A DNA stretch of 44,789 nucleotides, from sequence record OZ035822.1. The stretch is one strand, 5' to 3'. Source of the stretch: Vectrevirus PDP21P6. The notes beneath the pieces were generated by a model that was not told the origin of the DNA, did no database searches, and saw nothing but the letters and a program-made list of their open reading frames with translations. The stretch's first letter is position 1, and each line of letters opens with the position of its first letter. This document shows, one piece after another, positions 2,814 to 44,789 of the stretch. The position numbers were made by a program, and so were the translations under genes.

Positions 2814-3092
2814 ATGTCTAATAGTTATAGTACACAACCCCTTACCGGTAAGTCTGCTCGTAAGCAGATACAACCTGTGAGTGAAGCCCTGATGCTTCCT
2901 GTAGTTTACGAGGACACTGTTGAGAAGAAAGGTGATGTTATTAATGATGCCACCAAATCAGGTAAGCAGAAAGGAGCCATGGTGTGTCTTGATACACATG
3001 ATACACTGGTTATTGCTATCGCAGTTGATGGCAAAGAAGATTCCAATTGGCTGACCACGTTATTAGCGGTCACAACTATTACCCCAGCTTAA
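2814..3092 (+). CDS. hypothetical protein, tandem paralog A
   Basis: ATG 2814 with AGGAGAG RBS; 92 aa; shares LPVV..KK.D.IN..SGKQKG.MV...L.IAIA...W..T...TP.A pattern with next ORF. Confidence 0.6.
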   Translation: MSNSYSTQPLTGKSARKQIQPVSEALMLPVVYEDTVEKKGDVINDATKSGKQKGAMVCLDTHDTLVIAIAVDGKEDSNWLTTLLAVTTITPA

Positions 3093-3104: not shown

Positions 3105-3392
3105 ATGTCTAATTATGGAAACGCAGGTACTGTTACTGGTCAAGCTTTTCGAGTAAAAACTGTACAAACCACTGCAACGGCAATCCCTTTGCCTATTGTT
3201 GCTGAAGCAGACCTTAAGAAGAAAGATCACCCTATCAACATTAAACACCTATCTGGCAAACAGAAAGGCTCCATGGTTGCTGTAGAGAAAGCAGACAACT
3301 CCTTGTACATCGCTATTGCACGTGGTAGTGAACCAACTGACCCTTGGGATGCAACCACTATGGAGGAGACACCTGTAACCCCTGTAGCTTAA
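3105..3392 (+). CDS. hypothetical protein, tandem paralog B
   Basis: 95 aa, AGGAGA RBS, clear paralog of 2814-3092. Confidence 0.6.
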   Translation: MSNYGNAGTVTGQAFRVKTVQTTATAIPLPIVAEADLKKKDHPINIKHLSGKQKGSMVAVEKADNSLYIAIARGSEPTDPWDATTMEETPVTPVA

Positions 3393-3413
3393 TTGTAACA
3401 GATGAGGTCGGTG

Positions 3414-3758
3414 ATGCTTAATAAATACTTCAAGCGACGCGAGTTCGCTTGCCGTTGTGGGTGCGGTACATCCACTGTTGATGCTGAGTTATTACAGGTA
3501 ATCACAGATGTGCGTGAGTACTTCGGTGCTCCTGTGGTTATTACCTCTGGTCATCGCTGTGCAAAGCACAATGCTAAGGTAGGTGGAGCTAAGAACTCCA
3601 TGCATCTTACTGGTAAGGCTGCTGACATTAAGGTACAAGGAATTACACCTTACCGCGTATGGTCTTATCTAACAGCACGCTACCCCAATAAATATGGCAT
3701 TGGGTCTTATCCTAACTTCACCCATATTGATGTACGGAATGGGTGTGCACGATGGTAG
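3414..3758 (+). CDS. endolysin, peptidase M15 family (L-alanyl-D-glutamate peptidase-like)
   Basis: ATG 3414 with GAGGT RBS; motifs ITSGHRCAKHNAKVGGAKNSMHLTGKAADI and FTHID typical of zinc M15 peptidoglycan peptidases. Confidence 0.75.
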   Translation: MLNKYFKRREFACRCGCGTSTVDAELLQVITDVREYFGAPVVITSGHRCAKHNAKVGGAKNSMHLTGKAADIKVQGITPYRVWSYLTARYPNKYGIGSYPNFTHIDVRNGCARW

Positions 3759-3866
3759 GTTGTATTGCATGGTGTGAACGCATGGTTGCTAAGGCTTCAG
3801 AGGAAGGTAACTATGAAGATTGGCAGAACTACTCGACTTTATTGGCTCAATGGAAAGGGAGGTGCA

Positions 3867-4016
3867 ATGAAAAAGCTGTTTAAGTCTAAGAAGGTTGTAG
3901 GTGCATTAGTTGCATTGGCAATTGCTCTTGTTTCTGTAGGTCTTGGCGTAGACCTAGGTGAAGGTACGGAAGGTTCCGTCACTGACGTGGTATGCCAAGT
4001 AATCACCTGTGAATAA
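3867..4016 (+). CDS. small membrane protein (lysis-associated candidate)
   Basis: GGGAGG RBS then ATG 3867; 49 aa with one hydrophobic segment VVGALVALAIALVSVGL. Confidence 0.35.
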   Translation: MKKLFKSKKVVGALVALAIALVSVGLGVDLGEGTEGSVTDVVCQVITCE

Positions 4017-4230
4017 GGTACTTGAGGTGGTGGCAGGTCTTATTGGCCTGCTGCTTGCCGCTAAGAAAAAGAAGGAAGAGAAGGAGGCACAAAGTGAGGC
4101 GAATCATGCTAGCGACAATCCTGCTGATTGGTTCGCTGATCACTTCAGGGTGTCAGACGGCGTTACCAGAGAATCCAAAGGTAAAGCCCCTGAAGCCGAC
4201 GCTGACGGCAGTTTACGAGGTGGACGATAA
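4009..4230 (+). CDS. putative i-spanin (Rz-like)
   Basis: 73 aa, GTG start, N-terminal TM segment then charged region; overlaps a downstream out-of-frame lipoprotein ORF; short for an i-spanin. Confidence 0.4.
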   Translation: MNKVLEVVAGLIGLLLAAKKKKEEKEAQSEANHASDNPADWFADHFRVSDGVTRESKGKAPEADADGSLRGGR

Positions 4231-4303
4231 GGTCTGCTTCAGTAAGCCTGACGCTACACAATTAGGTCTGTACATTCTCTCGCTAGAACGCGGGTATAAT
4301 TAA
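4106..4303 (+). CDS. putative o-spanin (Rz1-like lipoprotein)
   Basis: ATG 4106 after AGGAGG; MLATILLIGSLITSGC signal with lipobox-like TSGC then proline-rich short mature region; overlapped architecture with 4009-4230. Confidence 0.5.
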   Translation: MLATILLIGSLITSGCQTALPENPKVKPLKPTLTAVYEVDDKVCFSKPDATQLGLYILSLERGYN

Positions 4304-4332
4304 TACATAGTTTTATGTATCAGTGTCTTACG

Positions 4333-4355
4333 ATTTACTGGACACTATAGAAGAG
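4333..4355 (+). promoter_or_regulatory. phage RNAP promoter
   Basis: ATTTACTGGACACTATAGAAGAG, +1 G at 4350, upstream of tailspike 1. Confidence 0.7.
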
Positions 4356-4434
4356 ATAAGATAGTGCCGTTCTTTTGAGCGGCCTATTACTAGCCAATCT
4401 TCATGGTGAGGGTTGGGAAGTAATAGGAGATAAA

Positions 4435-8380: not shown

Positions 8381-8450
8381 GCAGGTTAATATCTTAGTGT
8401 ACACAAGGGCAGACCTAGGTTTGCTCTTAGTGTATTTCAAAGGAGGTAAC

Positions 8451-8570
8451 ATGGGAGTGTTTAGCTTTATGTCAGGTACAACCAGTGATATGCCAAAGGA
8501 AGCATTCAGGAACTTCCTGATTATCGCAGGTGGAATCTTAGTGTTTTCACTAGTGCTGCTCACAAAGTAA
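8451..8570 (+). CDS. hypothetical small membrane protein
   Basis: 39-aa ORF with strong AGGAGGT RBS; C-terminal hydrophobic segment FLIIAGGILVFSLVLL. Confidence 0.3.
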   Translation: MGVFSFMSGTTSDMPKEAFRNFLIIAGGILVFSLVLLTK

Positions 8571-44640: not shown

Positions 44641-44789
44641 ATGATTAACTCAGAACTGGTAGATAGTGGTGTGAAGCTTGCGCCACCTGCATTAGTCTCA
44701 GGTGGGTACTTCCTCGGTATCAGTTGGAATGATTGGGTTCTTATAGCTACATTCATTTATACTGTATTACAAATTGGCGATTGGTTTTA
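44641..44789 (+). CDS. class II holin (T7 gp17.5-like), 3'-truncated at window end
   Basis: AGGAGG RBS then ATG 44641; MINSELVDSGVKLAPPALVSGGYFLGISWNDWVLIATFIYTVLQIGDWF resembles T7 holin; frame continues into bases 1-43 if the ends are joined. Confidence 0.6.
   Translation, partial: MINSELVDSGVKLAPPALVSGGYFLGISWNDWVLIATFIYTVLQIGDWF

Follow-up and report, generated by a model that had tools for sequence, protein, structure and literature searches.

Does the lysis cassette of SP6/K1E-like phages end in a minimal spanin pair, or do these phages breach the outer membrane by a different mechanism? This question is raised by the block at positions 3414-4303 of Vectrevirus PDP21P6 (sequence record OZ035822.1), which we analyzed as one stretch of 44,789 nucleotides (nt), referred to below as the window. 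The block encodes, in this order, an M15 endolysin, orf46, gp44, an open reading frame (ORF) of 73 amino acids (aa) that we call ORF73, and the lipoprotein gp45, and each gene overlaps the next one. The holin gene, the genes of the block, and the promoters described here lie on the + strand. SP6/K1E-like phages are widely used as therapeutic and depolymerase-carrying phages, hence the interest in how they open the outer membrane. By sequence and homology, these are the late lysis genes of a K1E-like podophage. We lean slightly toward the view that ORF73 and gp45 would together play the role of an overlapped Rz/Rz1-type spanin pair, with gp44 as a separate component.

The locus has been curated in two ways. 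Kongari et al. (2018; PMC6139136) listed the spanins of K1-5, K1E, and SP6 as 'separated', with gp44 as the inner-membrane spanin (i-spanin; 49 aa, 21 periplasmic residues, remark 'Too small?') and gp45 as the outer-membrane spanin (o-spanin; remark 'Too short'). In the same work, the spanins of UAB_Phi78 are 'overlapped', with a 69-aa i-spanin, treated as a singleton, and a 61-aa o-spanin. These two proteins are orthologues of ORF73 and gp45 (71% and 88% identical, respectively). Because UAB_Phi78 has a gp44 homologue of its own and ORF73 is present in K1E, too, the difference between the two phages is, judged by gene content, one of annotation and not of biology. This resolves an inconsistency of the census, in which one locus is 'separated' (gp44 and gp45) in three phages and 'overlapped' (ORF73 and gp45) in a fourth. 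Database records diverge as well: ORF73 is not annotated in those of K1E, K1-5, and LL11, the LL11 record follows the assignment of gp44 as i-spanin, and RefSeq calls gp44 'holin'. In the SP6 record AY288927.2, the coding sequence named 'o-spanin' (gene 48; 1226-1423 of locus L003) has neither a Cys nor a lipobox; it encodes a homologue of ORF73 that is truncated at the N-terminus. The ORF of the actual lipoprotein (1290-1499), in the +1 frame, is unannotated there.

By its gene content, the cassette is thus the standard one of SP6/K1E-like phages, already catalogued for K1E, K1-5, SP6, and UAB_Phi78. Gene order and products are the same as for the lysis genes of K1E, K1-5, and SP6, with the holin before terS and the endolysin after terL. 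What we add here is comparative evidence that ORF73 is a real gene paired with gp45, that the published annotations of the locus conflict, and that the ORF73 family is a misfit to the spanin definition.

Coding evidence for ORF73

ORF73 (4009-4230; GTG start) was assigned to the PHROG 9219 family and recognized as a gene by homology, its open frame, and codon periodicity. Its GTG start overlaps the stop codon of gp44 (GTGAATAA), which implies translational coupling of the two genes. The predicted protein begins with a hydrophobic/amphipathic helix, continues with a KKKK-rich charged helix and the conserved motif DNPADWFADHFRV, and ends in a tail that evolves without constraint. Searches against Pfam and NCBIfam did not return a family for ORF73, nor for orf46, gp44, or gp45. 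Likewise, a tblastn search of annotated phage records with divergent ORF73 relatives yielded no helpful curated name.

For the comparative analysis, 26 non-identical loci, which differ by up to 39% in their DNA, were aligned and substitutions were counted by parsimony. The ORF73 frame is open and its GTG start invariant in all 26 loci, and the gp44 Cys codon that overlaps this start is TGT in every one of them. Where ORF73 alone is coding (4017-4093), 41, 16, and 76 substitutions fall on codon positions 1, 2, and 3, respectively (chi-square p=3.4e-9), corresponding to 1.58, 0.64, and 2.92 per site. The ORF73 frame also dominates the overlap with the gp45 signal peptide (0.80 and 1.60 substitutions per site at codon positions 2 and 3, respectively), and this stretch, which encodes the conserved motif, is the slowest-evolving one of the cassette. 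Over the mature linker of gp45, the gp45 frame dominates and the tail of ORF73 is essentially unconstrained. Homologues in ECBP5/PP99, Pantoea phage Nufs112, Erwinia phage VL73, and Vibrio phage JSF38 start with an ATG that abuts or overlaps the upstream stop codon; that of Aeromonas phage Aer_P220 has an apparently valine-coded (GTG-type) start, as in the K1E types. Because of the periodicity outside the overlap, the frame that is open throughout, the invariant GTG, and the ATG-started distant homologues, ORF73 is on comparative grounds a real gene.

Two trivial explanations of this frame were discarded. A chance open frame over gp45 is ruled out by the periodicity, by a GTG that never varies, and by the homologues of distant clades, which start with ATG. 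A programmed frameshift or read-through that fuses gp44 to ORF73 is ruled out by the variable relative frame of the two genes (+1 in K1E types, -1 in PP99, in frame in Nufs112) and the lack of a conserved slippery site.

The lipoprotein gp45

gp45 (4094-4303) was identified by the lipobox rule and by homology to PHROG 8971 ('Rz-like spanin') as a gene for a 69-aa prolipoprotein. Its start is most likely the GTG at 4094 rather than the ATG at 4106, because a Shine-Dalgarno sequence (AGGAGG, 4082-4087, within ORF73) is located 6 nt upstream of the former and because SP6 has ATG at the position of the former and TGG at that of the latter. The same ribosome-binding site is quoted for K1E in the supplement of Kongari et al. 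(2018; PMC6139136). The signal peptide, MRRIMLATILLIGSLITSG, ends directly before the Cys of the lipobox LITSG-C, which passes a PROSITE PS51257-type rule. By this rule, the coding strand of the entire window has no plausible lipoprotein ORF other than gp45. Mature gp45 comprises 50 aa, with Gln at position +2 and the C-terminal motif LGLYILSLERGY. Both Cys20, the lipobox residue, and Cys48 are invariant across 26 relatives, and the C-terminal domain accepted only 0.25 substitutions per site at codon position 2. The +2 residue is G, S, A, V, or T in homologues and never Asp, and gp45 is predicted to be sorted to the outer membrane. Taken together, gp45 shows what is looked for in an o-spanin: a lipobox with an invariant Cys, no Asp at +2, and a gene within the lysis cassette that lies next to or overlaps that of its candidate partner. 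Like the o-spanins of lambda and T7, mature gp45 is a small lipoprotein that has a conserved Cys and a linker rich in Pro. The AlphaFold2 (AF2) model of the gp45 monomer is of low confidence (predicted local distance difference test score, pLDDT, 56).

An earlier note on this DNA had proposed a lipoprotein with a lipobox-like TSGC whose gene overlaps an ORF encoding a transmembrane segment plus charged residues. Both proposals hold: a lipobox is recognized by the rule above, the genes overlap with gp45 in the +1 frame, and the start of the lipoprotein gene most likely moves to 4094.

ORF73 and gp45 as a pair

The gp45 gene lies in the +1 frame relative to ORF73, (4094-4009) mod 3 = 1, and the overlap is 137 nt long. 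As in lambda Rz/Rz1 and T7 gp18.5/gp18.7, the lipoprotein gene starts inside that of its presumed partner in the +1 frame, and the pair ends the lysis cassette; the T7 pair, however, is located between terS and terL, whereas that of the window follows the endolysin gene. A tblastn search detected gp45-like lipoproteins in 166 phage records, including phages of Aeromonas, Edwardsiella, Pectobacterium, Pantoea, Erwinia, Vibrio, and Salicola. An ORF73-family gene is present at every gp45-family locus inspected, namely those of the K1E, SP6, Klebsiella, Proteus, ECBP5/PP99, Pantoea, Aeromonas, Erwinia, and Vibrio autographiviruses, of Salicola phage CGphi29, and of 14 metagenomic contigs. With one exception, the pair overlaps in the +1 frame at all of these loci, including four metagenomic contigs in which gene callers had missed the lipoprotein gene. 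The exception is provided by the temperate Vibrio phages X29 and PVP-XSN, where an inserted reverse-strand gene splits the pair; their 58-aa ORF73 homologue still matches PHROG 9219 at 8e-23. A motif scan of viral contigs gave 14 matches, 12 of which are true family members, all with an overlapped lipoprotein gene. A motif scan of bacterial genomes gave 37 matches, all by chance and none with the family architecture.

While this pair stays together, its surroundings change. The endolysin next to it is an M15 enzyme, a transglycosylase, a PF00959 protein, a GH108-like enzyme, or an amidase, and the membrane protein encoded upstream is either of the PHROG 4712 type (N-in/C-out) or of the unrelated PHROG 9685 type (predicted N-out/C-in). 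Lelliottia phage phD2B (L054) keeps a T7-type holin, an M15 endolysin, and a gp44-like gene without Cys codons; neither ORF73 nor gp45 nor any other credible lipoprotein ORF was found in its entire genome, which is apparently spanin-less. Since the pair co-occurs in every lineage examined, whatever the type of endolysin or of membrane protein encoded before it, the comparative data favor ORF73 plus gp45 as the invariant unit, and ORF73 rather than gp44 as the partner of gp45. The pairing of 4009-4230 with the lipoprotein gene, also part of the earlier note, is thereby supported, in disagreement with the published curation of K1E, K1-5, and SP6. The pair is thus invariant across deep phage lineages, and many unrelated phages have it in their lysis cassettes at the place where spanin genes are expected. 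A hint of covariation was also seen: the Trp of the ORF73 motif is lost exactly where gp45 has 'RY' for 'LY' (X29 and CGphi29), but these are two lineages, too few to count.

The temperate Vibrio phages bear on the idea that gp45, with or without ORF73, might be a lipoprotein unrelated to lysis, e.g., one that blocks a receptor or superinfection like T5 Llp or phi80 Cor. In X29 and PVP-XSN the lipoprotein gene stands alone beside an integrase gene, moron-like. However, in all other contexts the gene is found at the end of a lysis cassette, and even in X29 it lies ~1 kb from genes for an amidase and a small membrane protein, with an ORF73 homologue present. Moreover, receptor masking would be of little use to strictly virulent, capsule-specific phages. 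We regard this explanation as extremely improbable.

In the published curation, gp44 would be a minimal i-spanin and gp45 a separated o-spanin, with ORF73 accessory or unrelated. gp44 (3867-4016, 49 aa) is a single-pass membrane protein that matches PHROG 4712 ('holin') at 3.4e-27. Its N-terminus, MKKLFKSKK, is followed by a 19-residue apolar stretch and a 21-aa acidic tail with a conserved C-x4-C, in which Cys43 and Cys48 are invariant among relatives. It is annotated as i-spanin for K1-5, K1E, and SP6 (Kongari et al. 2018; PMC6139136), for LL11, and in the SP6 record AY288927.2. The Lys-rich N-terminus and a transmembrane domain (TMD) as hydrophobic as that of lambda Rz (Eisenberg mean hydrophobicity, <H>, 0.82) predict the N-in/C-out topology of an i-spanin. 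The spanins of lambda form disulfide-linked homodimers, and the invariant C-x4-C of the gp44 tail together with the invariant second Cys of gp45 recalls this arrangement. Likewise, phD2B, which has no gp45, encodes a gp44-like protein that lost both cysteines. But the ~21 periplasmic residues do not make up a domain that could bridge the periplasm, as already reflected in the curators' own remarks on both proteins, and gp44 is not co-inherited with the o-spanin: it persists in phD2B although gp45 is absent, and other phages with ORF73 and gp45 replace it with the PHROG 9685 protein of opposite predicted topology. In contig L055, the gp44 homologue (795-989, 64 aa) carries a second hydrophobic segment and a basic C-terminus, a class II holin-like topology; its gene is located directly after that of the GH108-like endolysin and before the ORF73-like/lipoprotein pair. 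Finally, the UAB_Phi78 locus, with the same gene content as that of K1E, was curated with the other ORF as i-spanin. We consider the assignment of gp44 as the i-spanin very doubtful.

We also looked for a conventional spanin pair elsewhere in the window, e.g., in the slot between terS and terL used by T7. That slot holds an HNH endonuclease gene, and a search of the window revealed no other lipobox ORF on the coding strand and no other small protein with an N-terminal TMD.

Fit of ORF73 to the i-spanin definition

A profile search of 1.84 billion representative proteins retrieved 68 ORF73-family clusters, all of them small proteins (49-95 aa) except for two longer sequences that are apparent fusion artefacts. 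The family consensus consists of a ~15-residue helix (LLxxLxxLLxL), a charged helix, the motif (D/N)PxxWFxxHFxGV, and a polar tail, without conserved cysteines. AF2, run on the family alignment, models ORF73 with a confident helix from residue 2 to 36 and a short one from 38 to 46, followed by disorder, and without a coiled-coil hairpin. In the tables of Kongari et al. (2018; PMC6139136), the UAB_Phi78 orthologue is likewise listed with 0 coiled coils and 17% helix.

Membrane insertion was judged by Eisenberg <H> and hydrophobic moment (muH), since these separated the controls. Hessa and Kyte-Doolittle window sums were dropped, because the control T7 gp18.5 scored as poorly as ORF73. The TMDs of lambda Rz, T7 gp18.5, and gp44 reach <H> values of 0.75-0.84 at low moment, compared to a median of 0.47 and a maximum of 0.65 for the ORF73 family. 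The helix of the window protein (<H> 0.58, muH 0.33) is borderline TM-like. In many members the helix is charged or amphipathic, and those of ECBP5, PM93, and the metagenomic contigs L058, L062, and L063 contain several charges. Furthermore, Lys and Arg residues are heavier on the C-terminal than on the N-terminal flank of the helix in 64 of the 65 members, the opposite of what an N-in/C-out topology demands.

These data speak to the possibility that ORF73 is a canonical, very short type II i-spanin, anchored in advance in the cytoplasmic membrane, with its C-terminal 50 residues in the periplasm and complexed with gp45 across the murein. This is how the earlier note and the UAB_Phi78 curation read it. 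The gene architecture agrees, with the o-spanin gene overlapped in the +1 frame and the pair in the spanin slot. The N-termini of the K1E and SP6 types fall just within the TM zone of the Eisenberg plot (<H> 0.51-0.58), the AF2 helix is continuous from residue 2 to 36, and Kongari et al. (2018; PMC6139136) accept pairs with a combined periplasmic length down to 62 residues. However, an N-terminal TMD is not predicted at the level of the family, in which the highly charged helices named above cannot span a bilayer, and is borderline in the window protein. In addition, KKKK follows straight after the helix, reversing the charge bias. The model also gives no helical or coiled-coil periplasmic domain of a length that would reach the o-spanin: no coiled coil is predicted, and the C-terminal tail, disordered in the AF2 model, is unconstrained and even absent in X29. 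By comparison, Rz and gp18.5 are proteins of 143-153 aa with a strong N-terminal TMD and long helical periplasmic domains, whereas ORF73 has only 73 aa, its helix is marginal, its charge bias is reversed, and its tail is disordered in the model. As far as sequence and model can tell, ORF73 does not look like a canonical i-spanin, and its family would be without the membrane anchor that the spanin model requires. We consider a canonical i-spanin quite improbable. Of the earlier description, the short length of 73 aa and the overlapped architecture stand, but the low hydrophobicity, the reversed bias, and the missing hairpin argue against the i-spanin label. The three small ORFs listed there as encoding membrane proteins are all present, but this label holds only in part, since the hydrophobic segment of ORF73 is marginal; the TMD of gp44 is strong.

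A possible route to outer-membrane disruption

According to the reading that we prefer, the T7-type holin would permeabilize the inner membrane and the leaderless M15 endolysin would then reach and degrade the murein. The outer membrane would be breached by the two-gene module of ORF73 and the outer-membrane lipoprotein gp45. ORF73 would most likely bind to the cytoplasmic membrane by its short N-terminal hydrophobic/amphipathic helix, peripherally or weakly anchored, and would meet gp45 via the conserved motif DNPADWFxxHF only after the holin has opened the envelope. The leaderless disruptin of phage phiKT, described below, is a precedent. gp44 would be a separate, translationally coupled inner-membrane protein, either holin-like or accessory.

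Several points weigh against this scheme. A cytoplasmic ORF73 could not touch a periplasmic lipoprotein before the membrane is breached; the step at which the two meet is one that we infer. The borderline TM-like helix of the window protein may still serve as a weak membrane anchor. The conserved overlap could reflect coupled expression rather than physical partnership. gp44 combines the predicted topology of an i-spanin with conserved periplasmic cysteines. The constant coupling of ORF73 to an upstream membrane protein, together with a natural fusion protein described below, hints at a functional link on the side of the inner membrane. Finally, in four metagenomic phage contigs (L058, 7777-8193; L060, 9701-10048; L062, 7870-8184; L063, 3458-3760) the gene immediately after the pair encodes a protein of 100-138 aa that combines a TMD at its N-terminus with a long helical domain and has weak matches to PHROG 462 and 'Rz-like spanin' families and no equivalent in the window. 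This TMD-plus-coiled-coil protein could be the true i-spanin there.

The link to the inner membrane leads to another explanation. ORF73 might act on that side only, together with gp44, as a split or two-component holin or as a holin/antiholin pair, to which it would bring a second, short hydrophobic helix and a charged tail in the cytoplasm, as holins typically have. In that case gp45 would work independently of ORF73, and the overlap would reflect nothing but genome compaction. In every context, ORF73-like genes are coupled (by ATGA, TAATG, or GTGAATAA) to the gene for a single-pass membrane protein upstream, and the Lys/Arg bias described above predicts a cytoplasmic C-terminal part in nearly all members (64/65). 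The database protein P0115 (95 aa) is a natural fusion in which a gp44-like N-terminus (TMD plus acidic loop) is joined to an ORF73-like C-terminus (charged helix plus NPAGWFNQHF). In the L055 homologue of gp44, the second TMD lies at the place of the ORF73 helix, and the PHROG label of gp44 is 'holin'. However, ORF73 is found beside two unrelated upstream families of opposite topology, yet always with the same lipoprotein family. A T7-type holin is already present in the genome, a lone o-spanin-like lipoprotein would be left without a known mode of action, and the deeply conserved out-of-frame overlap of 100-190 nt parallels that of Rz/Rz1. This explanation appears unlikely to us.

A further alternative keeps the pair but gives up the spanin principle. 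The PHROG 9219 proteins might be leaderless and non-spanning, be synthesized in the cytoplasm, enter the periplasm solely through the holin lesion, and dock by DPxxWFxxHF onto the LERGY-motif lipoprotein (PHROG 8971), by then already anchored in the outer membrane, so that a melittin-like N-terminal helix, hydrophobic and with a cluster of Lys/Arg behind it, ruptures the outer membrane. That an outer membrane can be disrupted by a protein not anchored in the inner membrane has a precedent in the 'disruptin' gp28 of phage phiKT, described (bioRxiv 10.1101/515445) as a small, leaderless amphipathic-helix protein that gets to the outer membrane only after the action of holin and endolysin. gp28 differs in being strongly cationic and in acting alone, whereas ORF73 is roughly neutral overall, has an acidic tail, and always occurs with a lipoprotein. 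We put this idea forward as tentative and rather unlikely. If true, it would define a third kind of outer-membrane disruption device, a hybrid of spanins and the phiKT disruptin that owes its safety to the separation of compartments instead of the murein mesh and has so far been misfiled as i-spanin, o-spanin, or 'hypothetical'.

Endolysin and holin

The endolysin gene (3414-3758; 114 aa, homologue of K1E gp43) encodes an M15_3 zinc peptidase. The protein matches Pfam Peptidase_M15_3 (PF08291) at 1.8e-32 (112 bits, cut-off 23.2) and PHROG 894 'endolysin' at 1e-44, and its substitutions (1.45, 1.03, and 5.05 per site at codon positions 1, 2, and 3) show a clear coding periodicity. An alignment with the Streptomyces D-Ala-D-Ala carboxypeptidase 1LBU matches residues 34-73 to its Zn-ligand region and places the H-x6-D zinc-ligand motif at H64 and D71; H104 was assigned from the sequence as the later His. 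The M15_3 domain, this motif, and a later His are common to M15 (LAS-type) peptidases such as 1LBU of S. albus and M15 phage endolysins. Unlike 1LBU-type enzymes, the window protein is a lone 114-aa catalytic domain without a cell-wall-binding domain. Its N-terminus is hydrophilic, and neither a signal sequence nor a signal-anchor-release (SAR) sequence was found in it; the enzyme is therefore cytoplasmic and holin-dependent.

The holin gene is cut by the ends of the window. Its first 149 nt are located at 44641-44789 and the last 46 nt, including the stop codon, at 1-46, where they overlap the start of terS (30-329). The window is thus a circular permutation of the genome that begins within the holin gene, and ORF lists without wrap-around miss this ORF. 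The joined 63-aa product, the homologue of K1E gp38, is a T7-type (class II) holin that matches PF10746 Phage_holin_2_2 at 4.6e-25 (87.5 bits, cut-off 25.4) as well as PHROG 920 'holin'. The gene lies directly before terS, in synteny with K1E gp38 and T7 gp17.5, and starts 3562 nt upstream of the endolysin gene. The zinc M15 peptidase and the holin upstream of terS had both been named in the earlier note and were found as described. The distance between holin and endolysin, singled out in that note, is not a peculiarity: it is the conserved layout of SP6/K1E-like phages, and such a split position is the norm in SP6-like phages (PMC4640515).

Neighboring genes and genome layout

The window is a K1E-like Vectrevirus genome. 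Region 3300-4400 is 99.5% identical to Vectrevirus LI10P5, shares 92% DNA identity with coliphage K1E, and has 120 matches in Molineuxvirinae phages of Escherichia, Klebsiella, Salmonella, Citrobacter, and Proteus. The coordinates are identical in related OZ0358xx Vectrevirus assemblies. A scan of the window with the consensus TTACTGGACACTATAGAAGAG revealed nine K1E/SP6-type promoters, all on the + strand and with none expected by chance, at 123 (within terS), 2660, 4335, 14802, 17321, 21592, 22361, 23507, and 32268. The promoter for the SP6/K1E-type phage RNA polymerase at 2660-2680, directly after terL, has two mismatches to the consensus. The next one, at 4335-4355, matches it exactly; it delimits the lysis transcription unit on the 3' side and serves the tailspike genes. 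gp41 through gp45 are flanked by these two promoters, and the first one probably drives gp41, gp42, and the lysis block as a single unit.

The counterparts of K1E gp41 and gp42 are paralogous genes for 92- and 95-aa proteins (2814-3092 and 3105-3392) that are named 'acetyl-CoA acetyltransferase' in RefSeq and PHROG 2725. Because no Pfam match was found for either of them and both are far too small for an acetyl-CoA acetyltransferase, this name looks like a propagated annotation error. Upstream, an HNH-type homing-endonuclease ORF (~330-774) separates terS from terL and extends past 722, the position listed as the start of terL. The homing endonuclease of K1E and phD2B is placed differently and splits terL into 40A and 40B.

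Between endolysin and gp44, and overlapping the end of the former and the start of the latter, orf46 (3752-3883) encodes a 43-aa soluble, Cys-rich protein with a C..WC motif. It matches PHROG 1312 at 3.8e-18, shows coding periodicity (2.47, 1.56, and 4.08 at codon positions 1, 2, and 3), and is kept even in clades with another endolysin. In Proteus phage Pm5460 (2760-3104 of locus L026), orf46 and gp44 form one continuous reading frame, while the two are separate in its sister phage PM93. The joined frame is either a real fusion or a sequencing frameshift; with it, the soluble Cys-rich part would lie on the side of the gp44 TMD that faces the cytoplasm. Near the genome end, after the second tailspike gene, a 57-aa ORF (8397-8570) encodes a protein with a strongly hydrophobic C-terminal segment.

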